Positions 12,658 through 32,000 of a stretch of 32,000 nt of DNA are shown in pieces (the first letter of the stretch is position 1; each line of letters opens with the position of its first letter). The stretch is from Rhizobiales bacterium Ga0077545 (lineage in GTDB: Bacteria; Pseudomonadota; Alphaproteobacteria; Rhizobiales; Methylopilaceae), in NCBI GenBank assembly GCA_001464335.1, contig LNEV01000006.1, positions 200,933 to 232,932 on the forward strand, given 5' to 3'. The notes under the pieces are model-generated. The model made no database searches. It had not been told where the DNA came from and worked only from the letters and a program-made list of their open reading frames with translations. The position numbers and the translations under genes were made by a program.

Positions 12658-12691
12658 AGCATAACCCGAATTGGCTGAACTCTATCTGAAC
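12658..12691 (-). promoter_or_regulatory. candidate auto-regulated promoter: GTTCAG-N5-GTTCAG direct repeat plus TATGCT -10 abutting the PepSY ATG
   Basis: Minus strand reads GTTCAGatagaGTTCAGccaattcgggtTATGCTcccttcATG. The repeats have 11-bp phasing, typical of OmpR/PhoB-family sites. No Shine-Dalgarno is present, so the -10 spacing would give a near-leaderless mRNA. Confidence 0.25.
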
Positions 12692-19568: not shown

Positions 19569-20455
19569 CGGAACAGGCTCCCGCCGTCCATCTCCCCCCC
19601 ATTGCCAGCATAGGCGAGCGCGCGGTCGGTGCCGGGCATGTGCGGAAAGCCGCGGAAGTTCACCGCATTGGAAAAGCGGTTGCGGCACGCGTCGAAACTC
19701 TTGTCGCATCCCGCCGTCACGGTGAAGGCATCGCCCGGTCCCGCCGGTGCGGCCAGTTCCTGCCAGAAGGCAAGCCGCACATACGCACCATCGAGACGGT
19801 GATCGCGGATCTGCGACACGCGCCCGGCATTCGGCCCGGACAGCCAGGTCATGGTCCCGCTGCGGAACCAGCCGGCGGAATAATCGCCGATCCCCTCCGC
19901 CACGATCTCGAACCGGCTCGCCGCATCGAGCACCGCCCCGTTGCCGCGAAAGGCAGGTCCGCTGACATCGCGCCCGCAGCGGGCATCGCCGAGCTGCGCG
20001 TCGCAGAGCGCGGCGTACAGACGGCCCTGCGGCACATCGAGCCGGTGCATCATCGCGCGCAGTTCCGCGACGAAGGCCCCGCCGGTCCGCCGCACCTCGC
20101 CGATCTCGCCGACCCGCAGACGCACGCGCTGCTCCGGCTCTCGCCAGTTCAGAAGAAAGGTCTCGACACGCGCGCCGTCCCAGAGGCCGGAGGCAAGATC
20201 GGCCTCGTCGAGCCCATCCGAATCGAGCGCGCCCGCGACCTCGCCGCCACCCGTGGCAAAGCTCGCATGGCTCACGGCCTCCGCCGCATCGAGCCCGCTC
20301 GCCGCACGGAACACCGTGTCTTCGAATGTGAGATCGCTGTCGTGATCGGTGAACCCCAGCACAATTCCGTCGCGCCGTGTCAGCCGCCAGCAATGGCACA
20401 GGGTCGTCGTCTCGCCGGCAAGATGCGCGGCAAGTTCAGGAGACAATGTCCGCAT
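19565..20455 (-). CDS. GTA g13-like protein (DUF2163 plus BR0599-type C-terminus)
   Basis: 296 aa. TTLCHCWRLTRRDGIVLGFTDHD N-terminus and the C-terminal GCDKSFDACRNRFSNAVNFRGFPHMPG hallmark. Confidence 0.85.
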   Translation of the reverse strand: MRTLSPELAAHLAGETTTLCHCWRLTRRDGIVLGFTDHDSDLTFEDTVFRAASGLDAAEAVSHASFATGGGEVAGALDSDGLDEADLASGLWDGARVETFLLNWREPEQRVRLRVGEIGEVRRTGGAFVAELRAMMHRLDVPQGRLYAALCDAQLGDARCGRDVSGPAFRGNGAVLDAASRFEIVAEGIGDYSAGWFRSGTMTWLSGPNAGRVSQIRDHRLDGAYVRLAFWQELAAPAGPGDAFTVTAGCDKSFDACRNRFSNAVNFRGFPHMPGTDRALAYAGNGGEMDGGSLFR

Positions 20456-20467
20456 GAGAATCTCCGG

Positions 20468-21094
20468 CTAGAGCCGCACCTCGATCACCGGCACGCTCGG
20501 GATCGCCCCGGCCTCGAAAGCCGCAAGATCGACTTCGAGGTAATCGGTGTCGAAGCGCACCGGCACATCGAATTGAAAGCCCGCCGTAACCTGTGCGCCC
20601 TCCTCCGGCGGCGCGGCGAAGGTCACGGCACCCGTCGCGGTGTCGACCGCATAGCCGTCCGCAATCTCGGCCCCGTCCACCGCAATGCGGATCGTCCCGG
20701 CAACGGGTTTCACGATGGGCCTCAGATAGGGATCGTCTCCCGTTCCATAGGCCTTGATGAGCTGGAATTGTGTACGTGCACCATCCCCGGTCCCGAGCGT
20801 CTGGTCGAACGGTGTCACGACCGCACCCGGCAAAGCCGAAGAATGATCGAGCCGGTCGCGCCAGCGAAAGCCGTTGAGGCGCCCGCGCCGCTCCTCGAAA
20901 AAGGTCACGACCTCGGAAAGCGCGCCAACCGTCTTGATGCCCCAGCCCGCATCCCATTTGCGGCGGGCATGGGCCCAGCGCGCATTTCGCTTTTCGCGAC
21001 CGGAGCCGAGCGTCACGATCTCCGTCCGCCGTTCCGGTCCGCCGCGCGCGCCGAGCGCGATCCCGGTCGGAAAACGCACCTCCTCGAAGCTCAT
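20468..21094 (-). CDS. GTA g12-like distal tail protein (DUF2460)
   Basis: 208 aa: MSFEEVRFPTGIALGARGGPERRTEIVTLGSGREKRNARW. Trimmed from the 399-aa track ORF. TAATG overlap with the tape measure stop. Confidence 0.85.
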   Translation of the reverse strand: MSFEEVRFPTGIALGARGGPERRTEIVTLGSGREKRNARWAHARRKWDAGWGIKTVGALSEVVTFFEERRGRLNGFRWRDRLDHSSALPGAVVTPFDQTLGTGDGARTQFQLIKAYGTGDDPYLRPIVKPVAGTIRIAVDGAEIADGYAVDTATGAVTFAAPPEEGAQVTAGFQFDVPVRFDTDYLEVDLAAFEAGAIPSVPVIEVRL

Positions 21095-21660
21095 TACATT
21101 CCCCTTCGTCCACGCGCCACCGCGCGCGCCAGAGCGGCCGATACCTGCGCCTCGGATTTGCGGAAACTGTCCGCATCCGGCGTCGAAATGTTCACGGTCA
21201 CATGCGTCGAAGCTCCGCCTTCCGTGCGGACACCGAGGCGTCCGTCCCGGCCGCGCGCCAGCGGCATGATGGCTTCCGCGCCCGCCTCTCCCATCAGGCC
21301 GAGCTTGCCCTGCCCCATCGGAAAATAGGTCGGCGCGGAAACGATCCCGCCCGATGCGAACGGCCGCACCACGCCACCTTTGGCGAAGGGAAGCGCCCCG
21401 CGCGTCACCGAGCCCAGCGCGCCCGAAATCAGGCTCTCCAGCGGCTGCATGGCGCTGCGCAGCGACAGATCGACCAGACGGTTGCCGAGCCCGTTCAGCA
21501 CCTCCGACAGCGAGCGCCCGCGGATCGCCGCGCCTTCCAGCGCGCCTGTCAACGAGCGGCCGAAGCCGCGCGACAGGCGGTCGAGATTGCCGAGCGAGCG
21601 CTCCAGGTCCTGTGTATTGGCGGTGAGAGGCGCGCCGCGCCCCTCGTCGAGAAACGACAT
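21094..21660 (-). CDS. GTA g11-like short tail tape measure protein
   Basis: 188 aa, helical and Gly/Leu/Ser-rich. Lies between the chaperone pair and g12. Confidence 0.75.
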   Translation of the reverse strand: MSFLDEGRGAPLTANTQDLERSLGNLDRLSRGFGRSLTGALEGAAIRGRSLSEVLNGLGNRLVDLSLRSAMQPLESLISGALGSVTRGALPFAKGGVVRPFASGGIVSAPTYFPMGQGKLGLMGEAGAEAIMPLARGRDGRLGVRTEGGASTHVTVNISTPDADSFRKSEAQVSAALARAVARGRRGM

Positions 21661-21663
21661 TGG

Positions 21664-21840
21664 TCACTCCGTTTTTACCGGGCCGTCCGGAAACTGGGCC
21701 ATCAGGTCCGCAAGTTCCGCGCGCCCGAGCGGCCCGACATGGCCGCCGGAAAGTCCCTCAAGTGCGGACGCGAGTTCGCGCGGCGTCATCGTCCAGAAAT
21801 CGTGTGGCGACAGCCGCAGCACGCCAAGCCCGGCCGCCAT
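21664..21840 (-). CDS. GTA g10.1-like tail assembly chaperone segment (ATG-initiated minimum; probably also made as a -1 frameshift extension of g10)
   Basis: Hand translation: MAAGLGVLRLSPHDFWTMTPRELASALEGLSGGHVGPLGRAELADLMAQFPDGPVKTE. The same frame stays open upstream (QGRSTIRTRQAFPWRDV) back to 21897, with no ATG/GTG/TTG in that stretch. Confidence 0.7.
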   Translation of the reverse strand: MAAGLGVLRLSPHDFWTMTPRELASALEGLSGGHVGPLGRAELADLMAQFPDGPVKTE

Positions 21841-21872
21841 GACATCGCGCCACGGAAAAGCCTGCCTGGTCC

Positions 21873-22235
21873 TTATCGTGCTGCGGCCTTGAAAGGGTCC
21901 GCCCCGGTCTCCTCATATGCGCCGCCCTCGCTTGCGCCAAAGGTCGCGGCAAGCAGCCGCGCCACGGCATCGAGATGCGCGGGAAGGCTGTCCGGCAGTG
22001 CCGCGATCTCCTCGTCGCGCATCGCGGTGCCGCCACCGCGAATCCCCGCGCCGAGAATGCGGATCGCGTCCCCGGCCGACAGCCTTCCGGTTTCGAAGCG
22101 CGCCGCGAGTGCGTTGAGATCGTCCGCGCCGAAGGCGGATTCGAGTTCGGCCAGCGCCCCGAGCGTCAGGCAGAGCGTAAAGCTGCGCCCGCCAAGCTCG
22201 GCGGAAATCTCGCCGCGATATCGGTTTGGCATCAT
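21873..22235 (-). CDS. GTA g10-like tail assembly chaperone
   Basis: 120 aa: MMPNRYRGEISAELGGRSFTLCLTLGALAELESAFG. Trimmed from the 165-aa track ORF. AGGA lies 4 nt upstream of the ATG. Confidence 0.75.
   Translation of the reverse strand: MMPNRYRGEISAELGGRSFTLCLTLGALAELESAFGADDLNALAARFETGRLSAGDAIRILGAGIRGGGTAMRDEEIAALPDSLPAHLDAVARLLAATFGASEGGAYEETGADPFKAAAR
21891..21897 (-). promoter_or_regulatory. candidate -1 programmed ribosomal frameshift slippery heptamer C CCT TTC
   Basis: In the g10 zero frame the codons are GAC CCT TTC, fitting X XXY YYZ. The site is 5 codons (KAAAR) before the g10 TAA. The -1 frame continues into g10.1. An 11-bp perfect long-range complement (21877-21887 with 21813-21823) starts 3 nt downstream. 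Confidence 0.45.
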
Positions 22236-22314
22236 GTGTTCCTGATTTTGTCGAGACAGAATCCGCTGCCGCCTGCTAGAGCTGCGCTGGAATGTGCGAG
22301 CACGGATACACAGC

Positions 22315-23094
22315 ATGACAACGAACCGCCCCGGCGCCTTGCACACCGCGCTTGCGGCCGTCAGCGACACCGTCCAGGGCTTCCGCGACGTGCCGCGTCC
22401 CTATGTGATCGTGCTTGTCGTGATGGCGCTCACCGAATTCATCGTCCTGCCCTACAGCCTCGATCCGCAGGCCGATGTCAGCCCCCTCGCCTCGTTCCTC
22501 GTGCTCGGCTTCATGCTGATTTCGACGTTCCTGCTGATCTCGCCCTATATCGGGCTCGTTCGTTATTTCCTGTACGGCGACATATCGGCGGGGTTCGAGC
22601 CGCGCGGTCCGATCCTGCGCGTCTTCGGCTGGATGCTGGCGCTCGGGTTCGCCAGCATGTTCATCTTCAGCCTTGCCGCGGTGATCGCCTTTCTCGTCGG
22701 AGGCGCTTCGCACGCCATCATCGGCACCCTGACCGCGCTGACATTCATCGCCATGTTCTGGGCCTATCTGCGCCTCAGCACCGTGCTCGTCGGGCTCGCG
22801 CTCGACGGGCCTGTGAGCATCAGCGCGCGCTTTGCCGAGACGAAGGGACATGTCTGGTTCATCCTGCGCACCTTTCTGGCCTCGCTGGTCGTGCTTGTCC
22901 CTTACATGCTGATCATGGTCGCCATTCAATTCGGCGTGTTCGGTGCGGAGAGTTTCGAGGCCGATATCGTTCCGACTCCGACCCTTGGCCAGCGTCTTCT
23001 CGATGCGCTGCTGACCGGAATTCTCGGCGCGGCCTATTTCGCCTATCTGTCCGCGCTGTATGTGCGGATATTCCGCGCCATCCCCGGGCGCTGA
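22315..23094 (+). CDS. multi-pass integral membrane protein of unknown function, opposite strand inside the GTA tail module
   Basis: 259 aa from ATG 22315 (the track ORF starts at GTG 22294). About 6 hydrophobic segments, high GC3. Convergent with g9 and divergent from g10. Confidence 0.7.
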   Translation: MTTNRPGALHTALAAVSDTVQGFRDVPRPYVIVLVVMALTEFIVLPYSLDPQADVSPLASFLVLGFMLISTFLLISPYIGLVRYFLYGDISAGFEPRGPILRVFGWMLALGFASMFIFSLAAVIAFLVGGASHAIIGTLTALTFIAMFWAYLRLSTVLVGLALDGPVSISARFAETKGHVWFILRTFLASLVVLVPYMLIMVAIQFGVFGAESFEADIVPTPTLGQRLLDALLTGILGAAYFAYLSALYVRIFRAIPGR

Positions 23095-23103
23095 CGCCGC
23101 GCG

Positions 23104-23514
23104 TCAGGCGGCCGCGAACACGACCTCTCCGGCGCTCTCCAGCGCCAGATCGAACGTCACCTCTCCCAGATGATCGCCGCGATATTCAAGCGCCGTGATC
23201 TGGAAGGGCGCTTCGATCACACCGAAATCGGGAACCACGATTTGCCAGGGGCGGATCGCACCCTCGAAGAAGAGTTCGCGCGCCATCGCATCGGAGGAGC
23301 TGTCGCGAAACACGCCCGCGCCCGAAAGGCTCGCGCGTTTCACGCCGGCGCCTTCCAGCAGTTCGCGCCAGCGGCCCGCGCTTTCGGAATGCGTCACATC
23401 CACCGCCTCGGCGTTGAGCACGACAGCGCGGGCGCGCAGGCCCGCAACACTGGTAAAGCCGCCCTCCCCGTCGCTGATCTTCAGCAGCAGGTCCTTGCCC
23501 TTCTGAGCACCCAT
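23104..23514 (-). CDS. GTA g9-like major tail protein (TP901-1 family)
   Basis: 136 aa: MGAQKGKDLLLKISDGEGGFTSVAGLRA...FQITALEYRGDHLGEVTFDLALESAG. RBS GAAGG upstream. Confidence 0.85.
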   Translation of the reverse strand: MGAQKGKDLLLKISDGEGGFTSVAGLRARAVVLNAEAVDVTHSESAGRWRELLEGAGVKRASLSGAGVFRDSSSDAMARELFFEGAIRPWQIVVPDFGVIEAPFQITALEYRGDHLGEVTFDLALESAGEVVFAAA

Positions 23515-23530
23515 CTGTCTGTACCTTCAA

Positions 23531-23560
23531 ATAGAAAAAGGGCCCCCATTCGCGGAGGCC
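23531..23560 (-). terminator. intrinsic terminator-like hairpin between g8 and g9
   Basis: Minus strand GGCCUCC-gcgaau-GGGGGCC (7 bp including one G.U) followed by CUUUUUCUAUUU. Confidence 0.5.
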
Positions 23561-23577
23561 CAGGATTTCAGGAGAAA

Positions 23578-23598
23578 CGTCTGCGTGCATCGCAGACG
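23578..23598 (-). terminator. second hairpin between g8 and g9 (perfect 8-bp stem)
   Basis: Minus strand CGTCTGCG-atgca-CGCAGACG followed by TTTCTCC. It starts 12 nt after the g8 stop. Confidence 0.4.
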
Positions 23599-23609
23599 GA
23601 CGCTCGCGT

Positions 23610-24017
23610 CTAAGAAGCAGGCTCCGTCAACGCGCGAAAGCGGAGCGAGGCAAAGCGATGGCGGCCGTCGCCCATGCGTCGGGCATCGGTCGCCATCCAG
23701 CGCAGATTGGCCAGCCTGTGGCCGGCAAGCGAAAGATCGGCTCCATCGAGAACGGAGGCGACGCGCGCCGCCGCGCTCAGCGAATCGGCCATGCCGCCCT
23801 CGCGCGACCACAGATTGAGGGTGAGGCGGTGTTCCTCTCCCTCGTCCACGGAAGCGCCCGCCTCGCGGCTCTCGATCTCGCCGAGAACGAGGTACGGCGC
23901 GCTTGTCTGCGCGGGCACCTCGTCGAATATCTTGATGCCTCCGAGAAGCGATGTCAGCGCAGCGTCGCTGGACAGGCGTGCGCGCACCGCAGCCCTCAAT
24001 GCCAAGGCTGCGCTCAA
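23610..24017 (-). CDS. GTA g8-like protein (DUF3168, tail completion/terminator)
   Basis: 135 aa: LLGGIKIFDEVPAQTSAPYLVLGEIESRE...LTLNLWSREGG. TTG start overlapping the upstream small ORF stop (TTGA). Confidence 0.8.
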   Translation of the reverse strand: MSAALALRAAVRARLSSDAALTSLLGGIKIFDEVPAQTSAPYLVLGEIESREAGASVDEGEEHRLTLNLWSREGGMADSLSAAARVASVLDGADLSLAGHRLANLRWMATDARRMGDGRHRFASLRFRALTEPAS

Positions 24018-24190
24018 CGGCGGCGGCCCGCATGCACCGGCGCGGGAATGGCTTCGGCGCCAAGCACGAAATTCGATTTCTCGATATGGATCCGGCGCGG
24101 CGAGAACCAGACATCCATCTGGGCGCCGGTGCGCTCCGCCAGCTTCTGTGTGAAGCCCTGACAGTTCTTCAAAACCTGGTCGAAGCTCAT
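24014..24190 (-). CDS. small hypothetical protein (58 aa) coupled between g7 and g8
   Basis: MSFDQVLKNCQGFTQKLAERTGAQMDVWFSPRRIHIEKSNFVLGAEAIPAPVHAGRRR. ATGA overlap with the g7 stop and TTGA overlap with the g8 start. Mostly GC3-rich codons. It fills an otherwise 170-bp gap. Confidence 0.4.
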   Translation of the reverse strand: MSFDQVLKNCQGFTQKLAERTGAQMDVWFSPRRIHIEKSNFVLGAEAIPAPVHAGRRR

Positions 24191-24516
24191 GCCGAAATCT
24201 CCTCGGTCAGGACGACCAGGAAACCTTCTCCCCGGTCGGCCGTGTGAACAGAACGTATGTGGTGAAGCGCGGTTCCATGGCGTAGGCGGGTCTGCGACGT
24301 AAGTCGAACGCCCTCCCGCACGATCACCCGGTGCGTGATGGTCTGCCCCGCATAGTCGCCGGTCAGCCGGAAGACGCCCTGCATCGGCTCGACGCACGCC
24401 CACACGGTTTGCGCGTCGCGGTAGGTGCGCCGCACACCGCCCGCGCCGTCCTCCTCTTCCTCGGGCTCGATCACGGTGATGCGCTGCCGGAGCCGCCCGA
24501 TCGGATCGCGCGCCAT
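24187..24516 (-). CDS. GTA g7-like head-tail adaptor (SPP1 gp16-type head closure)
   Basis: 109 aa: GRLRQRITVIEPEEEEDGAGGVRRTYRDAQTVWACVEPMQG...THRVIVR pattern. Confidence 0.8.
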   Translation of the reverse strand: MARDPIGRLRQRITVIEPEEEEDGAGGVRRTYRDAQTVWACVEPMQGVFRLTGDYAGQTITHRVIVREGVRLTSQTRLRHGTALHHIRSVHTADRGEGFLVVLTEEISA

Positions 24517-24517
24517 G

Positions 24518-25069
24518 TCAGATCCTCAACGCGCGTTCGGGCGCCATCAGGGCCGCCGCCGCAAGCGGCATGGAGGCCCGCGTCACGGCCTCCGCGCGGT
24601 GTTCGTACCAATGGCCGACCAGAAGCCGGATCGCCTGTACGAATACAGGCGGCACATCCTCCGCCCCGCCATATCCGGCCGTCACATCCACCTCGATCCC
24701 GGCGAACGCCCGCAGCAGCCGCGGCCGGTGCGCCACATGAACGCGTGCGGACGCCGCATCGAACGTCCAGCCCGAAAGATCGAGCTCGCTCGCACTGCCG
24801 TCCACCGCGCGCAGACGCGCGCCTTCCAGCACAGCAACCGGCGCGATGGGCAAAGCGATCACGCCATCCAGCGGCCAGGCATCGAGCACCAGCCGCCAGA
24901 TCTGCGTCACGAGCCGTCGCCCGGTCTGCGTCTCGACATGGCGCCGCGCCGCGCGGATGAGGTTTGTGATGAGCGCGTCTTCCGCGTCGTGTTCGACCCG
25001 CAGAAAGAGCTTCGCATCGACGAGCGACAGCGGCTCCTCCTCGGGCTCCGAGATGAGGATCACAGGCAT
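24518..25069 (-). CDS. GTA g6-like head-tail connector (gp6-like)
   Basis: 183 aa: MPVILISEPEEEPLSLVDAKLFLRVEHDAEDALITNLIRAARRHVETQTGRRL. Trimmed from the 399-aa track ORF. Confidence 0.8.
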   Translation of the reverse strand: MPVILISEPEEEPLSLVDAKLFLRVEHDAEDALITNLIRAARRHVETQTGRRLVTQIWRLVLDAWPLDGVIALPIAPVAVLEGARLRAVDGSASELDLSGWTFDAASARVHVAHRPRLLRAFAGIEVDVTAGYGGAEDVPPVFVQAIRLLVGHWYEHRAEAVTRASMPLAAAALMAPERALRI

Positions 25070-25097
25070 AAAAATATCCGGATGAAAGGAAGGTGCG

Positions 25098-25119
25098 TCC
25101 CCCGGCCGAAGCCGGAGGA
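25098..25119 (-). other. stable stem-loop with UUCG tetraloop 13 nt downstream of the capsid stop
   Basis: Minus-strand RNA UCCUCCGGC-UUCG-GCCGGGGGA: 9 bp (one U.G) closing a C(UUCG)G tetraloop. No immediate U-tract. Confidence 0.5.
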
Positions 25120-25131
25120 CGATGGGAAATC

Positions 25132-26403
25132 TCAGCTCACGCCGAACTTCAGCAGCTTGATCGCATCGAAATCCTGCACGCCGCCGCCGACGCGCTTGGT
25201 CGTGTAGAACAGCACATAGGGCTTTGCGGAGTACGGGTCGCGCAGCACGCGCACGCCCAGACGATCTACGACGAGATAGCCGCGCCGGAAATCGCCGAAC
25301 GCCAGCGCGAAACTGTTCGCGCCGATGTCGGGCATGTCCTCGGCTTCGGTCACCGGGAAGCCGAGCAGCGTGGCATCGCCTCCCGCCTCCGTCGGCGGCA
25401 TCCAGATGTAGCGGCCGTCGACATCCTTCAGCTTGCGCAGCGTTGCCTGCGTGCGGCGGTTCAGCACGAAGCGCGCGTTCTGGCGATAGCCCGCCTTCAG
25501 CGCGTAGACGAGTTCGATCAGCTCGTCGGCCGGCGCCTCTTCCGCGAAATCGCCGGACACGCCGGTCGCGATGTAGCCGAGGCTGCCCCAGGCCCAGTCC
25601 GCTTCGGCCACTTTCGTGCCGTGCAGAAAGCCGGTCGGCTTCTTGTTGCCGTCGCCGCTCACGAAGGCCGCGCTTTCCTGCGCGGCAAACGCGCTTTCCA
25701 CCTCCTGCGCGATCCACTGGTCGAGATCGACCGCGCTGTCGTCGAGCAGGGTCTGCGTCGCCGCCGGCATGGCATAGAGTTCCATGGCCGGGAATTCGAG
25801 TTCGGCAAGCGTCGGCGTGGTCGTCTGTGTACGTGCGTCGGTCTCGCCCGCCCAGCCGGAGGCAAAGCCCGTCGTCGCGAACGGTTTCTTGTAGGTCGCC
25901 GCCGAAATGGTGCGAAGGCCCGAAATGGCACGGATCGGCGATGCCGCGATCAGCCTCTTGCCAATCTCGCGCTCGGTCTCGTCCGGCACCGTGCAGCCGC
26001 CGTCGGCGCCGGTTCCCGCCGAAAGCGCCTTCGCATCGAGCCTGACGAGCGCGGACGCATCGCCACGGCGAATGTAAGTCTCGAACGCGGCCTTGCGTTC
26101 GCGCGTGCCGAGCGTCAGGCGCTCATGCTCCCCGCCGAGCGCCGGCCGCCGCGCCTTCAGCACGATCTCGTCGAGCGTCGCCTTCTGGCGGTCAAGCACC
26201 GCATCGATGCGCGCCAGTTTTTCCTCGGTCAGCGGATCGCCGGAAATCCGGTTCTCGATCTCGGCCAGGCGCTCGTCATTGGTTTCGCGATAGGTCTCGA
26301 ACGAGCGCAGGAAGGCGTCATACGCCTCCACCACATCGCCGCTTGTCGGCACATAATCCGCGGCCTTGTTTTCGGGCGCGCGGGGCGTTGCAAATCCGGT
26401 CAT
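25132..26403 (-). CDS. HK97-family major capsid protein (GTA g5)
   Basis: 423 aa from ATG 26403 (MTGFATPRAPENK...). N-terminal coiled delta-like region followed by an HK97-fold body. RBS GAGG lies 5 nt upstream. Trimmed from the 455-aa track ORF. Confidence 0.92.
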   Translation of the reverse strand: MTGFATPRAPENKAADYVPTSGDVVEAYDAFLRSFETYRETNDERLAEIENRISGDPLTEEKLARIDAVLDRQKATLDEIVLKARRPALGGEHERLTLGTRERKAAFETYIRRGDASALVRLDAKALSAGTGADGGCTVPDETEREIGKRLIAASPIRAISGLRTISAATYKKPFATTGFASGWAGETDARTQTTTPTLAELEFPAMELYAMPAATQTLLDDSAVDLDQWIAQEVESAFAAQESAAFVSGDGNKKPTGFLHGTKVAEADWAWGSLGYIATGVSGDFAEEAPADELIELVYALKAGYRQNARFVLNRRTQATLRKLKDVDGRYIWMPPTEAGGDATLLGFPVTEAEDMPDIGANSFALAFGDFRRGYLVVDRLGVRVLRDPYSAKPYVLFYTTKRVGGGVQDFDAIKLLKFGVS

Positions 26404-26420
26404 CGTCACCTCGTGGACAT

Positions 26421-26443
26421 AAAAAAAGCCGCTCGCGGCGGCT
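26421..26443 (-). terminator. terminator-like hairpin plus U7 tract between the protease and capsid genes
   Basis: Minus strand AGCCGC-cgcga-GCGGCT followed by TTTTTTT, then the capsid RBS. Confidence 0.45.
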
Positions 26444-26461
26444 CGGGATGGAAAGAAGAGG

Positions 26462-27043
26462 TCAGCGCCGGAACAGCGCCTCGGCCTCGGCGCGTGCACC
26501 GCGCGGAGAAGCCCGGCCGAACGGCATCCGCTCGCTGCGGAAGAAAACCGGCGTCTCCTTCACCGCCGCGATGCGGGCTTCGGGCAGCATCGGGAACGTC
26601 ACGATGGAAATCTCCCACAAATCGATCCGCTCGATGCGGCGCACGCCCGTGCGCGCATCGCGCCGCGCGCTGACGGCTTTGAAGCCGATGGAGAGCCCGT
26701 CGATGCCGCCCTCGCGGATCAGGGTCCAGACATCGCGCGCCTGGGCGACCTTGAGGCAGAGCCGCCCGCGCACACGCAGCCCCATCGCATCCTCGCGGAT
26801 CTCCTCCCACACGCCGATCGGCTGCGCCGGATCGTGCTGCCAGAGCATCCGCACGCGCCCTGCGCCCGTTTTCGTGAGGCTGTCGGAAAACGCGCCCTTG
26901 ACGATGAGATCGCCGCCGAGATCGGTCTCGCCGAACAGACTGGCATACCCCGTAATGACGCCGCTGAAGCCGTTTCCGGAAATGATGTTGGGTGCCCGCG
27001 CGAGCTTTTTGGTCTCGGACACGGGCGTAAAGAGTTTGGACAT
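26462..27043 (-). CDS. HK97-family prohead protease (GTA g4)
   Basis: 193 aa from ATG 27043: MSKLFTPVSE...FSGVITGYASLFGETDLGGDLIVKGAF...MLWQHD...GLSIGF. The 5' extension of the track ORF is translated repeat sequence. Confidence 0.88.
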   Translation of the reverse strand: MSKLFTPVSETKKLARAPNIISGNGFSGVITGYASLFGETDLGGDLIVKGAFSDSLTKTGAGRVRMLWQHDPAQPIGVWEEIREDAMGLRVRGRLCLKVAQARDVWTLIREGGIDGLSIGFKAVSARRDARTGVRRIERIDLWEISIVTFPMLPEARIAAVKETPVFFRSERMPFGRASPRGARAEAEALFRR

Positions 27044-27064
27044 GAAGGATCGCTCCCAGACAAA

Positions 27065-27180
27065 CCTCATCCTGAGCCGGACTCGCGGCAAAGCCGCGAG
27101 CCGCGTCGAAGGATGGCGGCGCATTCAGAATGTGTGGCTATCCTTCGACACGAGCCCTGCGGGCTCGGCTCAGGATGAGG
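27065..27180. repeat. composite structured inverted repeat, copy A (two units, tail-to-tail)
   Basis: Forward unit 27065-27114 is CCTCATCCTGAGCC-hairpin-GCGTCGAAGGAT. Reverse unit is 27140-27180, with a 21-25 bp spacer. Same family as copies B and C. Confidence 0.8.
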
Positions 27181-27286
27181 CCGATAAAAATTCAGCGGCC
27201 CGCCATCCGGCGGCGGCTCACGGACAAGGCAGCCAGCACCTGAAGAAAGGCGCGGATGATCGTCTCCGCTTCGCTCTGCGGCATGG

Positions 27287-27472
27287 TCAGTCTCCCTCGA
27301 AACGGCTGTTGAAGCGCGCCAGTTCGCGCACGAATGTGTCGAAGCGCCGGTTGGCGCAGGCGAGTTCGCGAAACGTCATGACGAACGCACCCCACCCCGC
27401 CGCCGCCAGCGCAAACAGCGCCAGATGCGCAAGATCGCCGCGCGCGGCGATGTGCGAAAGAATGTCGGGCAT
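27287..27472 (-). CDS. small hypothetical membrane protein in the g3.5 position
   Basis: 61 aa from ATG 27472: MPDILSHIAARGDLAHLALFALAAAGWGAFVMTFRELACANRRFDTFVRELARFNSRFEGD. One TM plus an amphipathic helix, high GC3, GGAG 10 nt upstream. Similarity to RcGTA g3.5 was not verified. Confidence 0.35.
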   Translation of the reverse strand: MPDILSHIAARGDLAHLALFALAAAGWGAFVMTFRELACANRRFDTFVRELARFNSRFEGD

Positions 27473-27489
27473 GGGATGCACACTCCGTC

Positions 27490-27569
27490 ATCCCGGAAAT
27501 CGCGCAGCGATTGTCCGGGATCGTCCACCACTCACGAAACGATCCCGGATCGGCTGCGCCGTCCGGGAT
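27490..27569. repeat. two tandem REP-like palindromic hairpins with ATCCCGGA...TCCGGGAT arms
   Basis: Hairpin 1 is 27490-27521 (14-bp arms, one bulge). Hairpin 2 is 27542-27569 (12-13-bp arms, one bulge). Hairpin 2 ends 5 nt from the portal stop. Confidence 0.6.
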
Positions 27570-27573
27570 GGCG

Positions 27574-28731
27574 TCAACCGCCATACCCCACGGCCGCGCG
27601 CTTCTCCGCATCGCTGAGAAAATCCGCAGCCGCGATCCGCCGCCACAGAGCCTCGCGCTCGGACGACAACGCCTCGATCCTGTCGAGATCGGGCTCCAGC
27701 CGGAGCGCGCTCTCGCCGAAGCCGGGCGCGAGCCAGTGCGCGATGTCGGCCAGCACGCGGTTCAGCAGCGGCAGAACGCTCTGGCGCCACAGCGCGCGGT
27801 TGGCTTCCTGATAATTCGCATATGTATTGTCGCCCGGAATGCCGAGCAGCATCGGCGGCACGCCGAAGGCGAGCGCGATCTCGCGCGCCGCGCCGTTCTT
27901 GGCCTCCATGAAATCCATATCCTTCGGGCTGAGCGCCATGTTCTTCCAGTCGAGCCCGCCATCGAGCAGAAGCGGCCGCCCGGCATTGCGCGGCCCGGAA
28001 AACTGGTTTTCCAGTTCCTCCTTCAGCCGCGAGAACTGCTCTTCCGAAAGGTTTGCGCCCTCCGGTCCTGAATAGACCAGCGCACCGGAAGGCCGCGCCG
28101 CATTGTCGAGCAGCGCCTTGTTCCAGGCCGAAGCCGCGTTGTGCACGTCGAGCGCCTGCGCGGCGGCTTCGAGCGGCGACAGCCCGTAATGATCGTCGAG
28201 CGGATGAAAGAAGGTGAGATGCAGAATGGGCCGCACCTCGCCGCTCTGGCGAAAACGCACGCTGTCGGCTCCCACCGTGTAATCATAGGCCTCCGGCCAC
28301 CCGTCCACGCCGGGCACGACCTTCATCCGGTCCGGGCGCAGCACATGAAGCTCGCGCGGCACGCCATCGAGCGCCGCCGCTTCGCAATAGCCGTTGCCGG
28401 CCACGAGCAGATGCCCGATCAGCGTTTCGAGAAAAGCCGAACCGCTCTGGCGCGCGTTCGGGCGCATGAGAAGTGAAAGCAGCGGATGCGTGTCGAGCTC
28501 GCGTGCCTCATTATAGATGAGCAGCGGCACGGACCCCGCCGCCTCGGCAATCATCCGCACGCAACGAAACACCACCGCGTTCTTCGTAAAGCCTTCGCGC
28601 GCCAGAGCCGCATAATCACGCGGCGTCCAGACCGGTCGCCCCGCCTGATGCAGCGCAACCACGGCCCCCGCGCGCGACGCCTTCTCCTCCGGCGCCACGC
28701 GGCGCAGGATGTTCTGCAGTCCTTGGAACAA
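27574..28731 (-). CDS. HK97-family portal protein (GTA g3)
   Basis: 385 aa. TTG start preceded by AAGGAG at 6-nt spacing. Sequence includes ...RDYAALAREGFTKNAVVFRCVRMIAEAAGSVPL... Confidence 0.9.
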   Translation of the reverse strand: MFQGLQNILRRVAPEEKASRAGAVVALHQAGRPVWTPRDYAALAREGFTKNAVVFRCVRMIAEAAGSVPLLIYNEARELDTHPLLSLLMRPNARQSGSAFLETLIGHLLVAGNGYCEAAALDGVPRELHVLRPDRMKVVPGVDGWPEAYDYTVGADSVRFRQSGEVRPILHLTFFHPLDDHYGLSPLEAAAQALDVHNAASAWNKALLDNAARPSGALVYSGPEGANLSEEQFSRLKEELENQFSGPRNAGRPLLLDGGLDWKNMALSPKDMDFMEAKNGAAREIALAFGVPPMLLGIPGDNTYANYQEANRALWRQSVLPLLNRVLADIAHWLAPGFGESALRLEPDLDRIEALSSEREALWRRIAAADFLSDAEKRAAVGYGG

Positions 28732-28764
28732 TTCGATCTCCTTCGGCCCTTGAACGATTCAAAA

Positions 28765-28923
28765 CCTCACCCTGAGCCAGACTCGCTGAAAGCGAGCCGT
28801 GTCGAAGCCTCATCCTGAGCCGGACTCGCAACGCAGTTGCGAGCCGTGTCGAAGGATAGCGACACGCTCAACATTCCGGGCCATCCTTCGACACGAGCCT
28901 GTCAGGCTCGGCTCAGGATGAGG
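28765..28923. repeat. composite structured inverted repeat, copy B (two forward units, spacer, one reverse unit)
   Basis: Units at 28765-28807, 28808-28857 and 28883-28923 (reverse). The copy ends 5 nt before the GIY-YIG ATG. Confidence 0.8.
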
Positions 28924-28928
28924 TTTGA

Positions 28929-29240
28929 ATGAACGCGTGGCTCTACATCGTCCGGTGCGCCGACAATTCCTTCTATGTCGGCACAACGCGCGACAGCCTC
29001 GAAACACGGATCGCCCAGCACAATGCCGGCTCGTTTCGCGGATACACCTTTACCCGCCGTCCGGTCGCACTCGTCTATTCGCAGGACTTCGACCGCATCA
29101 CCGATGCCATCGCCGCCGAACGCCAGGTCAAAGGCTGGAGCCGCGCCAAGAAACAGGCGCTGATCGACGGAAATTTTGGGATGCTGCAAGATCTCGCGAA
29201 GTGCCGCGCAACTCTCGCGCGCCAATCTCAATCATCCTGA
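28929..29240 (+). CDS. GIY-YIG nuclease family protein (small, stand-alone URI domain)
   Basis: 103 aa: WLYIVRCADNSFYVGTTRDSLETRIAQHN...AIAAERQVKGWSRAKK, showing the GIY / YIG / Arg / Glu motifs. The stop codon lies inside repeat copy C. Strand is opposite to the GTA genes. Confidence 0.85.
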   Translation: MNAWLYIVRCADNSFYVGTTRDSLETRIAQHNAGSFRGYTFTRRPVALVYSQDFDRITDAIAAERQVKGWSRAKKQALIDGNFGMLQDLAKCRATLARQSQSS

Positions 29241-29373
29241 GCCGGACTCGCGTCGAAGCCTCATCCTCAGCCGGACTCGCAACACAGTTGCGAGCCGTGT
29301 CGGGGATGGCCACGGGCTCCGAATGTGCCGCCATCCTTCGACACAGATGCTACGCATCTGGCTCAGGATGAGG
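29232..29373. repeat. composite structured inverted repeat, copy C (truncated forward unit, forward unit, spacer, reverse unit)
   Basis: Units at 29232-29258 (truncated), 29259-29309 and 29331-29373 (reverse). Confidence 0.8.
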
Positions 29374-29386
29374 TCGGGCCAGATAC

Positions 29387-29414
29387 CATCCCCTCACATC
29401 CCCTCACATCCCCC
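29387..29414. repeat. 10-bp tandem direct repeat CATCCCCTCA x2.7 spanning the terL stop codon
   Basis: Seen directly: catcccctca catcccctca catccccc. On the minus strand this reads GGGGATGTGA GGGGATGTGA GGGGATGG. Confidence 0.7.
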
Positions 29415-30762
29415 GCAGCCTCGGCACACCGCGCCCGGCTCCGCGCATCAGTTCGCTCACCGCCCACACCAGCGCATCGAGCCGGTCGGGCGAGCGTCCG
29501 GACGTGAGGCCGTTCAGGCCGAAGTCACACATCTCGTCTTCGAGCTCCTTCATCGGAACCGCGTGCCGCACCCGCCCTTGCGCATAAAGATTGGAGACCG
29601 GCTCGGCCCGCAGCCATTTCCCGCGCGTCGCATGAACGAGCGTCACCGGGATCGACGGATCGGCCTGGCCGATCACGGCCCGCACCATCTCACCGCCCTG
29701 ATTGGCCTCGGCCACCAGCGCATCGGCCTCGAAGGCGTGAAACGCGGCGGCCGCGGCGGCCGCCCACAGATCGGGCCGCGCCGCCGCGATCGTGCGGTCG
29801 CCCAATACATACGTCACGCCGTCCGGCGCGAGGCCCGCCGCAACAATGCCGCAGGCATCCGAATGCGCGTGGCCCGTTGCCGCCGGATCGACCGCAACGA
29901 CGATCCGCAGCAGCGCCGGCACCTCGCTCGCCCGCGCCTCCTCGATCATCGCGCGCGTCCACAGCGCATCGGCACGGTCTTCGATCACTTCGCCTTCAAG
30001 TTCCTGCCGCCCCAATCGGGTCCCCACATAGCGATTGACGATCCCGTCCAGAAAACGCGGCGAGAGATTGCGCGCATTGGCGAGCGTCGCGGCATGCGTC
30101 ATCACGGTGCCGGGATCGCGCATCAGGCGCTTCAGAAGCTGCGTCGGGCGCGGCGTCGTCGTCACCATCTGGCGCGGGCGTGTGCCGAGCCGAAGCCCGA
30201 ACTGCAACATGTCCCACACCGCATCGGCCTTCTTCCATTTGGCCAGTTCATCGCACCAGGCGGCGCCGAATTGAGGGCCGCGCAGGCTTTCGGGATCTTC
30301 CGCCGAAAAACATTGCGCCACCGCGCCGTTGGGCCAGGTCAGTTTTTTCAGGGTCGGCGTCCAGTCAGGACGCGCGCCCGGCAGCGAGAGAATGCCGGAG
30401 ACGCCCTCCACCATCACATCGCGCACATCCGCAGCCGTCTCGCCGATCAGGGCAATGCGCTCGACGGGCTCTGAGGTGAAACCCGGAAGGCCCAGCGCAA
30501 GCCCCCTCACCCATTCGGCGCCCGCGCGCGTTTTGCCCGCGCCGCGTCCGCCCAGAAAAAGCCATACGCTCCACGCGCCCTCCGGTGGCCGCTGTTCGGC
30601 ACGTCCGAACAGCATCCAGTCGTCCAGAATGCGCGCCACATCCTGCTGCGGCAGCGCTTCAAGCTTCTCCTGCAGAATCCGAAAGGCGTCCTGCCTCGTC
30701 TGCTGCACTGTCGAGCAATGCCTCAAGACGGCGCGCAAGATCGCGGCGGAACTCATCGACAT
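29404..30762 (-). CDS. terminase large subunit (GTA g2)
   Basis: LEALPQQDVARILDDWMLFGRAEQRPPEGAWSVWLFLGGRGAGKTRAGAEW (Walker A GRGAGKT). The track ORF begins at GTG 30804. In-frame ATGs are at 30762/30756 and a GTG at 30708. The true start is uncertain, and every option overlaps the g1-like gene. Confidence 0.9.
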   Translation of the reverse strand: MSMSSAAILRAVLRHCSTVQQTRQDAFRILQEKLEALPQQDVARILDDWMLFGRAEQRPPEGAWSVWLFLGGRGAGKTRAGAEWVRGLALGLPGFTSEPVERIALIGETAADVRDVMVEGVSGILSLPGARPDWTPTLKKLTWPNGAVAQCFSAEDPESLRGPQFGAAWCDELAKWKKADAVWDMLQFGLRLGTRPRQMVTTTPRPTQLLKRLMRDPGTVMTHAATLANARNLSPRFLDGIVNRYVGTRLGRQELEGEVIEDRADALWTRAMIEEARASEVPALLRIVVAVDPAATGHAHSDACGIVAAGLAPDGVTYVLGDRTIAAARPDLWAAAAAAAFHAFEADALVAEANQGGEMVRAVIGQADPSIPVTLVHATRGKWLRAEPVSNLYAQGRVRHAVPMKELEDEMCDFGLNGLTSGRSPDRLDALVWAVSELMRGAGRGVPRLRGM

Positions 30763-31210
30763 CGATTTCGTCTCTCTCTGCCACCGGCTCGTGCGGAGTT
30801 TCACCCTCGATCCGCTTCAGTTCCGCCATTGTCTTGACCAGGCTCGCGAGCGTGCGCGCAGCGCGTTCGCTGTCGTTGGCCCGCGCCGTGCGCGGGCCGG
30901 GTTTCGAGAGATCGAATTCGGCCAGCAGGATTTGCCGTTCGATGTGCGCGCGCACCCGCCTGGAAAGGCCTTTCATCGTGGCGCCTTCCGGCTCCTTGCG
31001 TTTGCCGAGACGGCTCGGCAGGCGCAAATTCCAGCCCATGCGGACAACGCGCCGGGACAATGTGCTCTGCCCGATCCCCATCAGCTTTGCGATCCTCGCC
31101 ATCGGCACATCGGTCTGCTCGTAAAGCGCCCGCGCACAGATCAGCACATGATCCTCGCTCCCGTTGTCGTCGATGTTCTTGTCTTCCGAAACGATCTCCC
31201 CTTCGGACAT
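30659..31210 (-). CDS. GTA g1-like protein, putative HTH small-terminase-like DNA-binding protein
   Basis: 183 aa from ATG 31210 (MSEGEIVSEDKN...), with GGAG 7 nt upstream. HTH-like VPMARIAKLMGIGQSTLSRRV. First gene of the cluster. Trimmed from the 214-aa track ORF, whose extension covers the leader hairpin. Confidence 0.55.
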   Translation of the reverse strand: MSEGEIVSEDKNIDDNGSEDHVLICARALYEQTDVPMARIAKLMGIGQSTLSRRVVRMGWNLRLPSRLGKRKEPEGATMKGLSRRVRAHIERQILLAEFDLSKPGPRTARANDSERAARTLASLVKTMAELKRIEGETPHEPVAERDEIDVDEFRRDLARRLEALLDSAADEAGRLSDSAGEA

Positions 31211-31221
31211 GTCAGCACTCC

Positions 31222-31260
31222 AAAAACAAAACGGCGGCCCCGTGGTGCGGGTCCGCCGTT
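31222..31260 (-). terminator. intrinsic terminator in the g1 leader
   Basis: Minus strand AACGGCGG-A-CCCG-cacca-CGGG-G-CCGCCGTT (12 bp with one internal mismatch) followed by TTGTTTTT. The GGAG RBS and ATG follow directly. Confidence 0.6.
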
Positions 31261-31282
31261 CGCAATTCTTCATCGTGCATAT

Positions 31283-31311
31283 CTTGTAGCAAACCAGCGT
31301 CACGCTGTCAA
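31283..31311 (-). promoter_or_regulatory. sigma70-like promoter for the GTA cluster
   Basis: Minus strand TTGACA - 17 nt - TACAAG. The predicted start site is about 65 nt upstream of the g1 ATG, so the leader consists almost entirely of the terminator hairpin. Confidence 0.4.
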
Positions 31312-31825
31312 GAACTTTTTCCTATATTCGTTTTGTGCGGGCATTCGCGAAACGCATCGCGAGCGCCGTTGCCGTGCCGCGCGACTCGTTCCGCGAACGC
31401 CGGGGAGGTTCGCGCGCACCCAAATTTCTGTGTCCTTTTTGCCGCGCTCCGAAGTATTCGAATTTTGGATTTTGGCACGCCAGCCGTCGCGGCACGCCCG
31501 CTGGACGCCTTCCGACGGTCTCGGGGCACAATTTTTTTGAGCGGGAAGCCGGCGCGTGCGGCAGCGCCTGCGGTTTCGTGCCTGTATGCACTTCGACAAT
31601 ATCGGGAAGATGAGGGCACGCGAAAACAGCGCGCGCGCATTTAACATCCAAGTGCCGATTTTGCCTTGTATTTCCTGAAGGCGCGACTGGCGCGGCCCTG
31701 TCTGCCGCGTCCATCCGAAAGGTGTCTTGCCAAGCAAAGAGCGTGTGCGAATCTTTCCGCGCGGCATGTGTTCGGCGGGTTTGATTCAGCGCCCGCGCGT
31801 TCGTCGCGCAGCTCATCCTCCTTGC

Positions 31826-31840
31826 TTAACTTAAAATTAC
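31826..31840. promoter_or_regulatory. near-consensus CtrA-type box TTAA-N7-TTAC
   Basis: TTAACTTAAAATTAC, one mismatch to TTAA-N7-TTAA. It is about 120 bp upstream of the plus-strand ATG at 31962 and about 615 bp upstream of g1. Confidence 0.2.
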
Positions 31841-31961
31841 CAATCAACATGCCAATTGCTGTTGGTACATGTCGATTACGCTTGCCGAGTTCGAAAAAGC
31901 AAGGTCAAGGTTTTCGTGTGTGCGTGTATTGAGTCGCGAATAACCCGCGGAGAAAAAAATT

Positions 31962-32000
31962 ATGGCTACGACACCCAAGGCTAAGAAGCCTGCTGCAAAG
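31962..32000 (+). CDS. 5' end of a Lys/Ala-rich protein (13 codons, truncated by window end)
   Basis: ATG preceded by GGAG at 9-nt spacing. Reads MATTPKAKKPAAK. Too short for a functional call. Confidence 0.35.
   Translation, partial: MATTPKAKKPAAK

Follow-up and report, generated by a model that had tools for sequence, protein, structure and literature searches.

A promoter-leader arranged like a lambdoid late promoter, and probably controlled by anti-termination, in front of an RcGTA-type gene cluster of a Rhizobiales bacterium

How the structural gene cluster of a gene transfer agent (GTA) is kept off, and how it then becomes fully transcribed, is a central question in the control of these particles, as a cell that makes them dies. 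Caulobacter and, in part, Rhodobacter are the only organisms in which the mechanism has been dissected. We have addressed this question for a stretch of 32,000 nucleotides (nt) from Rhizobiales bacterium Ga0077545 (contig LNEV01000006.1, positions 200,933 to 232,932; hereafter called the window), a DNA of 66% GC that carries a complete RcGTA-type GTA cluster on its minus strand. Directly 5' of the first gene of this structural cluster, the same position as that of the GafYZ- and GafA-controlled GTA promoters, lies a promoter that is immediately followed by an intrinsic terminator (Table 1). We suggest that this segment is a dedicated promoter-leader of the cluster, built like a lambdoid late promoter and switched on by anti-termination, a reading to which we assign a probability of roughly 0.6.

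The elements named in the original prediction, which comprise TTGACA and TACAAG at a distance of 17 nt, a hairpin with its T tract, a GGAG motif and the ATG of the g1-like gene, are all present on the minus strand at the places assigned to them. The 17-nt spacer and the usual distance of 7 nt from the -10 region predict that transcription starts at the A of the CA in CACGAT, at position 31276. The g1 start codon was also chosen by an independent gene call on a public contig of identical sequence (L081). As the T tract ends only about 10 nt before this ATG, and as the ribosome-binding site overlaps the tract, there is no room for a separate g1 promoter, and g1 can be transcribed only through the terminator. 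A consensus sigma-70 promoter scan of positions 14000-32000 called no promoter because TACAAG lacks the final T, and the terminator scan of the same tool passed over the leader hairpin because of a single internal A/G mismatch in its stem. Both doubts are resolved by the comparison with other GTA loci described below, since the -35 region, the spacing and the position of the -10 region are kept in 58 of 80 of them. CACGAT itself was considered as the true -10 region and rejected, as a spacer of 20 nt would then be required to reach the closest -35-like sequence, GTGACG. Inspection by eye also spoke, on grounds of spacing and sequence, against reading GGAA...CGT as an EcfG-type or other alternative-sigma promoter and against CtrA, FixK and LexA boxes.

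The short leader consists largely of the hairpin. The segment 31285-31195 folds at -35.8 kcal/mol (z = -4.0), which is matched by 0 of 200 shuffled sequences, and the hairpin alone contributes -20.7 to -22.7 kcal/mol by way of a GC-rich stem of 13 base pairs that includes the A/G mismatch and is followed by nine U in ten positions. According to a strict terminator finder, it is the strongest compact combination of a hairpin and a T tract in the entire 32 kb on both strands. The terminator lies at +17 to +55, and release of the RNA is predicted at about 31221-31225, giving a transcript of about 52-56 nt. With the terminator formed, the leader folds at -25.2 kcal/mol, whereas the best fold in which the 5' arm cannot pair with its downstream partners has -7.5 kcal/mol; the earlier statement that no anti-terminator pairing can be seen was thus borne out. 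Only 16 nt precede the hairpin, neither mutually exclusive folds nor a known aptamer of the kind that would mark a riboswitch or an RNA attenuator was found, and the riboswitch and aptamer families of Rfam gave no match to the leader, just as the window and 20 related loci gave no Rfam match at the gathering threshold.

Table 1. Features of the promoter-leader, of the first cluster gene and of two hairpins further downstream, with positions in the window.
Feature	Position	Strand	Remarks
Upstream element ATAGGAAAAAGTTC	31325-31312	-	Imperfect dyad AGGAA-N4-TTC(T/C), abuts the -35 region
-35 region TTGACA	31311-31306	-	Consensus; invariant in alignment A1; near-maximal information in 58 loci
Palindrome CAGCGT-G-ACGCTG	31307-31295	-	Perfect 6-1-6; overlaps the -35 region and fills the spacer; candidate anti-terminator loading site
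Spacer, 17 nt	31305-31289	-	Between -35 and -10 regions
-10 region TACAAG	31288-31283	-	Weak, without final T; 17 nt after the -35 region
Gap, 5 nt	31282-31278	-	Between the -10 region and the initially transcribed region
Initially transcribed region CACGATGAAGAATTGCG	31277-31261	-	5' of the hairpin
-10-like hexamer CACGAT	31277-31272	-	Predicted -1 to +5; candidate sigma-dependent pause element
TGCG	31264-31261	-	Predicted +13 to +16; T-N-Y-G match, consensus for the scrunched sigma-dependent pause
Terminator hairpin AACGGCGGACCCG / cacca / CGGGGCCGCCGTT	31260-31248 / 31247-31243 / 31242-31230	-	13-bp stem, 5-nt loop
T tract TTGTTTTTGG	31229-31220	-	RNA reads UUUUGUUUUU with two stem Ts included
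Ribosome-binding site GGAG	31221-31218	-	Overlaps the end of the T tract
g1 start codon ATG	31210-31208	-	About 10 nt after the T tract
g1-like gene	30659-31210	-	183 aa; helix-turn-helix-like stretch; first cluster gene; overlaps the terminase gene
g8/g9 hairpin and T tract	23561-23530 (hairpin 23561-23540)	-	GGGCCTCCGCGAATGGGGGCCC then TTTTTCTATT; -17.5 kcal/mol; before tail tube gene g9
Protease/capsid hairpin and T7 tract	26444-26418 (hairpin 26444-26427)	-	Weak, -10.8 kcal/mol

The nearest relatives of the terminase encoded in the window are only 53-64% identical to it among 185,579 species genomes, and their hosts are Hyphomicrobiales, for example Xanthobacter, Methylocystis, Pseudolabrys, Roseibium, Methylobacterium and Brucella/Ochrobactrum. 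A set of 80 loci was gathered by terminase homology alone. A sequence with no more than three mismatches to the 17-bp signature TTGACAGCGTGACGCTG is found upstream of the terminase gene and on the same strand in 58 of the 80 loci, whose ungapped consensus, from -25 to +55 counted from the first T, reads tagGaAaata.TcC TTGACAgCGTgACGcTG.tc.G. TAg..t ..g. cAtGcTC.a.aa.tg.g. At the position of the -10 region, the first T is present in 52 loci, the A that follows it in 55 and the final T in 35, with TAGGGT, TAGCTT and TAGTGT as common forms. The upstream element appears as tagGaAaata.TcC and forms perfect AGGAA-N4-TTCCT dyads in two loci (L017, L018). The AGGAA-N4-TTCC(T) dyad is centred near -42, the classical position of a class II activator; to judge from its sequence it may serve as a site for an activator or as an UP-like element, and one guess is that the protein bound there would be a DnaA-like partner of the GafY type.

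The module is found well beyond these loci. Exact matches to the 17-mer were obtained in at least 120 metagenome stretches and in 34 stretches of a viral collection, and the copies that possess the conserved flanks lie either 5' of g1/terminase or directly 5' of a portal gene; the remaining copies lack the flanks, are situated mostly in coding-like sequence and have the appearance of chance matches. Clusters that are split or interrupted carry a second module in front of the portal gene, as seen in locus L227, where one module precedes the terminase gene by 874 nt and the other the portal gene by 250 nt. A sensitive blastn search of 50,697 phage genomes gave no match to the module, and a literature search for the palindrome string returned one unrelated paper only. 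Because its flanked copies front g1/terminase or portal genes and because it is duplicated in L227, the module is, by all appearances of its sequence, a portable GTA-specific promoter that is reused at split clusters.

The symmetry of the sequence between the -35 and -10 regions is itself conserved. Five of its six base pairs are complementary in 45-55 of the 58 loci, compensatory changes from G-C to C-G occur in three of them, and the central base is free (G in 33 loci, A in 13, T in 6 and C in 6); such a pattern reads as the signature of a dimeric DNA-binding protein. Five bases past the -10 region follows a conserved hexamer of the form CAyGnT. The pattern nAnnnT is present at -1 to +5 in 55 of the 58 loci, compared with 35 at the real -10 region and 0-18 at other offsets. 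A T-N-Y-G motif, supplied by a conserved TTGCG (TGCG), lies 13 nt past the first hexamer base in 29 loci and one position further on in 14, hence in 43 loci in all; no more than seven have it at any other offset.

These elements closely resemble those of two promoters at which anti-termination factors are loaded. The alpB promoter of Pseudomonas aeruginosa contains the AlpA element ABE between its -35 and -10 regions, CACGAT at -1 to +5 and the terminator tB; its CACGAT is needed for anti-termination by AlpA, which is impaired by a change of A(+1) or T(+5). The CACGAT of the window is identical to the alpB hexamer in both sequence and position. The lambda promoter pR' has AACGAT at +1 to +6 and the motif T+14 N Y+16 G+17; from the first base of its -10-like element to this motif it is 13 nt, as in the window. 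Common to the window, pR' and alpB are a promoter-embedded factor element, a -10-like hexamer among the bases that are transcribed first, and a terminator of the intrinsic type before late or lysis genes, so that each of the cis elements of a Q/AlpA-type loading promoter (embedded dyad, -10-like hexamer, T-N-Y-G, intrinsic terminator) is found in the window. Differences exist in the binding element, which is a symmetric dyad in the window, and in the terminator, which lies much closer to the promoter than lambda tR' at about +194. A homologue of Q or AlpA is neither known nor seen here. By analogy with ZBE, QBE and ABE, elements to which GafZ, Q and AlpA are linked, the dyad is a candidate loading site, and CACGAT and TGCG are candidates for elements that impose a sigma-dependent pause.

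The terminator recurs downstream of the module in many relatives. As the hairpin stems vary in length and sequence, an alignment made for a formal covariation test would be fitted to the structure, and we relied on recurrence with unrelated sequences and on enrichment statistics. A strict terminator, defined as a compact stem of -15 kcal/mol or better with at least six T in nine positions and situated within 420 nt downstream, is present in 43 of 106 modules from all sets taken together, compared with 10 of 106 reverse complements, 4.7 of 106 shuffled sequences and 3 of 92 upstream regions on the same strand (Fisher p = 2e-7 for the comparison with reverse complements, 6e-11 for that with upstream regions); in the unbiased genome set, the corresponding numbers are 24 of 58, 10 of 58, 3.3 of 58 and 6 of 57. 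Canonical terminators are hence enriched about 4-10-fold over the controls. Distant relatives, with terminases of 44-50% identity, can show exactly the layout of the window with other stems, for instance AGTCGGGCGGCGCTCCAGCGGAGCGGCCGCC-TTTTGTTTTGGG in L085 and AGTCGGGCCGGCCCCCTTGGGGGCGCGGCCCGA-TTTCTTTTGGGGAGGGGATG in L116, and the spacing of the window is combined with unrelated stem sequences in L194, L203, L215 and L235. Among closer relatives, a hairpin of unrelated sequence occupies the same position in L028, L060, L041, L043, L206, L016, L029 and L050, and in alignment A1 the T tract belongs to the few blocks that are kept 3' of the hairpin. The terminator is a frequent but not a universal part of the module, and the promoter, the dyad and the pause elements appear, from their sequences, to be its constant part.

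Several lineages possess variants of this arrangement. In one of them (L204 1538+, L217 1139+, L222 1434+, L227 6888+, L231, L235), a second module lies 180-280 nt before the portal gene, and a canonical terminator, e.g., AAGGCCGGGCGGGTCTCCGTCCGGCC-TTTTTTGTTG, is embedded in the first 20 or so portal codons, where it encodes ...GRPFLLRGW; this hairpin is retained even when extra codons have been inserted. In Bradyrhizobiaceae-like loci (L091, L107, L119, L140, L151, L180, L201, L047, L062, L077, L033), about 100 nt of leader separate the module from a conserved open reading frame of 49 aa with one hydrophobic helix (MPRVEDNRIVESATEARAGVTGHNVRYVLVISTLAAIVLVAVAYLVMRA), after which come a terminator and then the GTA genes; the 49-aa protein has no match in Pfam or PHROG. 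The leader of L227 (oriented 2872+50 to +215) contains three tandem GC-rich direct repeats of about 47 nt, each capable of forming a hairpin, with a T tract after the last, and is reminiscent of the three 150-bp GC-rich repeats of the Caulobacter terminator terGTA. Well-flanked modules without head genes downstream are found in L103 (8807+) and L167 (3406+). As judged by eye only, the former is followed by an open reading frame with a peptidoglycan-binding-lysozyme-like stretch and then by a response-regulator-like frame, and the latter by two small, toxin-antitoxin-like open reading frames; in both, the promoter may have decayed or been put to another use.

A transcript of the kind predicted for the window has already been described in Brucella under another name. 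In a permissive search, the element in the window aligns end-to-end with the Rfam family RF02612 (BSR1350) at 19.3 bits (E = 0.92); with a gathering threshold of 216 bits it is not a member by the Rfam rule, but its position and motifs mark it as a homologue. In Brucella (Ochrobactrum) haematophila (L061), the module reaches 41.9 bits with this model, and the score is 213.5 bits in Brucella sp. 10RB9214 (L236 3308-3483), where the match lies 67 nt upstream of a g1-like gene of 170 aa that is followed by genes for terminase, portal, DUF6107, protease and capsid proteins. The Brucella sequence reads AATAGGAAAATAGTCC-TTGACAGCGTTACGGTG-ctttgg-TAGATA-ttggc-TACGGTCGAGAAATTGCG ... AGCCCCGGAAAGCCATCGGTTTTTCGGGGTTTCTTTT, and the RF02612 consensus includes the AGGAA element, TTGAC, the dyad, TAGATA, TACGGTCGAGAAATTGCG and the terminator. 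BSR1350 is thus, on the evidence of sequence and position, apparently the Brucella copy of the GTA promoter module. Its Rfam model spans untranscribed promoter DNA, as its boundaries come from promoter and terminator prediction, and the Brucella leader of about 100 nt is longer than that of the window (about 55 nt). A further Rfam family, RF02599 (BASRCI408), overlaps the BSR1350 match at L061 2329-2502 (39.6 bits, E = 1.7e-8), and two Rfam families of Brucella small RNAs (sRNAs) hence match one GTA leader.

Wang et al. (2015, PMC4365724) predicted BSR1350 in B. melitensis 16M from an intergenic promoter and terminator, detected it by northern analysis in both the exponential and the stationary phase, and found by RT-PCR that it is not co-transcribed with either flanking gene. 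A promoter that fires in culture while its transcript remains unconnected to the neighbouring genes is the behaviour expected under the lock model in a culture with the GTA off. The RNA has been treated as a candidate trans-acting sRNA in the 2015 paper and in a 2022 review; the term "gene transfer agent" is absent from the text of the review, and the 2015 paper was not searched for it. We propose to re-read this published Brucella sRNA as the terminated leader of a GTA-like cluster.

The course of events that we envision is as follows. RNA polymerase with the housekeeping sigma factor would start at about A31276, CACGAT (-1 to +5) and TGCG (+13 to +16) would hold it in a sigma-dependent pause, and a dimeric protein on the CAGCGT-N-ACGCTG dyad would be handed over to the paused enzyme. 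When this protein is absent, the polymerase would stop at the terminator (+17 to +55) and release an RNA of about 55 nt, and g1 together with the cluster of about 17 kb would stay silent; when it is present, the polymerase would become resistant to terminators and would pass the leader terminator and, further on, the g8/g9 hairpin as well as the insertion with its flanking repeats that separates the terminase gene from the portal gene. The consensus -35 region and the Brucella data suggest that initiation is perhaps largely unregulated and that control is exerted at anti-termination, as at lambda pR'. The preference of the original prediction for a protein-mediated, processive mechanism over a riboswitch, with GafYZ of Caulobacter as the model, is supported at the level of sequence and comparison by the lack of a competing fold and of room for a second promoter, by the elements of a loading site, by the recurring layout and by the Brucella RNA.

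Anti-termination is the known mode of control for the GTA of Caulobacter crescentus, whose promoter PgtaT involves GafY, GafZ, IHF, the element ZBE and the terminator terGTA (Tran & Le 2024, PMC11150451). ZBE is a near-perfect palindrome between the -35 and -10 regions, its mutation abolishes both the loading of GafZ and GTA production, and GafZ also bypasses the unrelated intrinsic terminator rrnB T1. According to Tran & Le, GafZ has no sequence or structural similarity to Q or AlpA; they liken ZBE to lambda QBE and AlpA ABE. The window shares with PgtaT the type of cluster, an inverted repeat between the -35 and -10 regions and an early terminator that has to be bypassed, and for both it is proposed that a long cluster is read through processively. 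The two differ in several respects. The terminator of the window is compact, intrinsic and situated before the first gene, whereas that of Caulobacter consists of three 150-bp GC-rich repeats after the first gene, and PgtaT has a 5' untranslated region with the start codon at +251. In place of the distant GafY and IHF sites of Caulobacter, the AGGAA-N4-TTCC dyad abuts the -35 region; no YBE (near -120 in Caulobacter) or IHF motif was recognised in the window, the upstream 640 bp of which were not analysed for them. The portion of the paper that we drew on describes neither a -10-like pause element nor a T-N-Y-G match for PgtaT. GafZ has a single target in Caulobacter, in contrast to the two modules per cluster of some lineages. 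What was known already is thus the anti-termination of the Caulobacter GTA cluster by GafZ; what appears to be new in the sequences studied here is the lambda/AlpA-like pause-and-load architecture in combination with an immediate intrinsic terminator.

The C-terminal domain of GafA from Rhodobacter capsulatus binds a fragment that contains the -35 and -10 regions and the start site (PMC6363796; PMC9638019). The RcGTA promoter also fronts g1 (TerS) of a cluster of the same type, and the GafA-bound fragment corresponds to the region of the dyad in the window; a binding motif, a terminator or anti-termination is not described in either Fogg 2019 (PMC6363796) or Sherlock & Fogg 2022 (PMC9638019). 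Tran & Le go no further than to suggest that GafA might have anti-termination activity (PMC11150451). Published searches found GafA homologues throughout the Hyphomicrobiales, including Brucellaceae, mostly split into a small DnaA-like gene and a DUF6456 protein of 22-32 kDa that are located beside sufE and mucR. By analogy, the factor acting on the module is most likely such a split GafA homologue, that is a GafZ-like DUF6456 protein encoded elsewhere in the genome, which possibly acts together with its DnaA-like partner.

A number of observations weigh against a lambdoid promoter under anti-terminator control. Its start site in this organism is a prediction from sequence, its -10 region (TACAAG) is weak and was not called by the consensus promoter scan, and a canonical terminator, under the strict criteria, is present in only about 40% of the related modules. 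Neither a DUF6456/GafA-like nor any other anti-terminator gene was found among all plausible open reading frames of the 32-kb window with Pfam, NCBIfam and PHROG; the frames 11543-12664 (+), 8184-9563 (-) and 2222-2914 (+) have no family match. The dyad of the window differs in sequence from the Caulobacter ZBE (GCGCCCG-CTGGCGC), and its -35 region is the consensus TTGACA, as in nearly all relatives, whereas that of Caulobacter is degenerate (AATCAT) and GafY-dependent. BSR1350 is reduced in an hfq mutant (PMC4365724), a dependence typical of trans-acting sRNAs, and its gene neighbourhood was inspected in the locus of Brucella sp. 10RB9214 only, not in B. melitensis 16M.

Such data make it necessary to consider what else the segment might be. 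We regard it as unlikely that it is a stand-alone sRNA gene of the BSR1350 family, which would encode an Hfq-dependent, trans-acting RNA of about 55 nt with the conserved 5' 16 nt as its seed, the position before the GTA cluster being historical and the cluster being silent or otherwise expressed. The RNA does have the layout of Hfq-dependent sRNAs, in that its conserved 5' end is single-stranded and is followed by a terminator hairpin with a U tail, and the northern signal of BSR1350, its independence of the neighbouring genes and its decrease in the hfq mutant all suit such a function. This account has to explain, however, why the unit always abuts the GTA head genes in the same orientation, with no further promoter fitting into the window, why it is duplicated exactly at the split clusters (L227), and why a small open reading frame or 100-400 nt precede the terminator in several lineages, neither the length nor the body of the RNA being conserved. 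The strongest conservation, moreover, lies upstream of the start site (dyad and -35 region), and the conserved transcribed bases fit pause signals that act at the DNA level at a fixed spacing. Both functions need not exclude each other, as the terminated RNA could have acquired a separate role; the 6S RNA of lambda is a comparable by-product. We consider it similarly improbable that the dyad is the operator of a repressor on a strong promoter with a consensus -35 region, with control at initiation and with the terminator as a passive leak filter or partial attenuator that needs no dedicated anti-terminator. The dyad overlaps the -35 region and the spacer, the classical position of an operator, and together with the consensus -35 region it suits a repressor just as well as an anti-terminator, a point that has to be counted against our own proposal. 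A double lock would also be plausible for a process that is lethal to the producer, and substitution of a consensus -35 region rendered the Caulobacter GTA promoter constitutive, as reported by Tran & Le (PMC11150451). A repressor nevertheless leaves unexplained the near-invariant hexamer at -1 to +5 and the T-N-Y-G motif at its fixed spacing, both of them hallmarks of Q/AlpA loading; the Brucella promoter fires in both growth phases and yields a transcript that is not joined to the downstream gene, which puts the block at termination, and a terminator of -22 kcal/mol with nine U in ten positions is no mild attenuator.

Far less probable than these is an RNA switch acting in cis, be it a riboswitch, a T-box-like element or a leader-peptide attenuator, even though a terminator in a 5' leader is the usual output of a riboswitch and an in-frame ATG at 31273 could open a short frame that reads through the hairpin. 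The 16 nt in front of the hairpin and a terminator-less fold that is worse by 17.7 kcal/mol speak against it, and no Rfam family matches apart from the weak BSR1350 hit. The upstream frame is not conserved in the relatives whose sequences were read; it contains a stop in L215, and L194 and L203 have another frame or no start codon. Finally, the segment could be a coincidence, namely a hairpin of a GC-rich genome with a fortuitous TTGACA upstream. The empty promoter scan was in favour of this view, and the terminator-like sites in the scanned region number 18 against 12.3 expected from shuffles; the folding statistics given above and the conservation of the 17-mer with its flanks in 58 of 80 independently found loci refute it.

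If control by anti-termination is accepted for the window, a broader proposal can be made, which we advance tentatively and for which the odds are in our view somewhat short of even. The Hyphomicrobiales and neighbouring alphaproteobacteria would share one portable late promoter for their GTAs, a functional analogue of lambda pR' and alpB made up of a dyad for loading, a sigma-dependent pause element, a T-N-Y-G pause site and a terminator. Initiation there would be essentially constitutive, and a GafZ-type protein with no relation to Q or AlpA would decide at the anti-termination step alone whether the lethal GTA particles are made; BSR1350 would be the by-product of the locked state, perhaps with a trans function of its own. 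The analysis suggests that GafZ-type factors share the pause-and-load route with Q and AlpA despite folds reported as unrelated, which, if true, would make it the third independent invention of this route. It also provides a precise map of elements (dyad, CACGAT, TGCG, terminator) for a large group of unstudied GTA carriers, including Brucella/Ochrobactrum, Methylocystis, Methylobacterium, Roseibium and Pseudolabrys, and the 17-bp signature locates the starts of GTA operons, including the second operons of split clusters.

Downstream of the leader, the cluster contains genes for the g1-like protein, large terminase, portal, S78 protease, major capsid and head completion proteins, a gp17-like tail completion protein, tail tube, GTA-gp10, tape measure and DUF2460 proteins, a Gp84/BR0599 hub, a GTA_TIM protein of 1280 aa, a DUF2793 protein and a GH108 lysozyme. 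The g1-like protein has no match in scans of Pfam, NCBIfam and PHROG and is taken by its position as the counterpart of RcGTA g1 (TerS). Beyond the leader terminator, the original prediction had pointed to hairpins at the protease/capsid and g8/g9 junctions and had described the cluster as punctuated by terminators. Both hairpins are real, although of unequal strength, and the wider claim is weakly supported. The g8/g9 hairpin is strong and may terminate transcription within the cluster, in which case it would be a further obstacle for an anti-termination complex; only three loci extended far enough for its conservation to be assessed. The weak protease/capsid hairpin is not conserved, as a strict terminator exists at this junction in only 2 of 37 related loci. 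The repeat hairpins with U tracts that had also been cited belong to a repeat family that flanks a gene inserted into the cluster.

This gene (28929-29240, plus strand, opposite to the cluster) encodes a GIY-YIG endonuclease and lies between the terminase and portal genes. The repeats on its two sides (28760-29400) have the core TCATCCTGAGCC, which occurs in eight copies in the window against 0.12 expected and builds long inverted repeats; one further pair is located at the portal/protease junction (27067-27178). The gene and its repeats look like a mobile element with MITE-like repeats inside the GTA operon. No second promoter module was found 3' of the insertion in the window, so that a transcript from 31276 must cross it, which is consistent with, but no proof of, a processive mechanism. 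Another gap in the cluster, of about 730 nt (22370-23104), separates the tail tube gene g9 from the GTA-gp10 gene; its best-looking open reading frame (22294-23094, plus strand, opposite to the cluster; 266 aa, GC3 0.82) has no match in Pfam, NCBIfam or PHROG.

On the other side of the module, about 630 bp of apparently non-coding DNA (31326-31952) separate it from a divergent gene that begins at about 31953 on the plus strand with MATTPKAKKPAAKK and encodes a lysine/alanine-rich product. A public gene call places an open reading frame of 164 aa at 31322-31816 on the minus strand; its translation is arginine-rich nonsense, and the frame, for which the conserved TAGGAA supplies the stop codon TAG, is probably spurious. 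The same upstream region contains a hairpin of -14.8 kcal/mol at 31881-31839.

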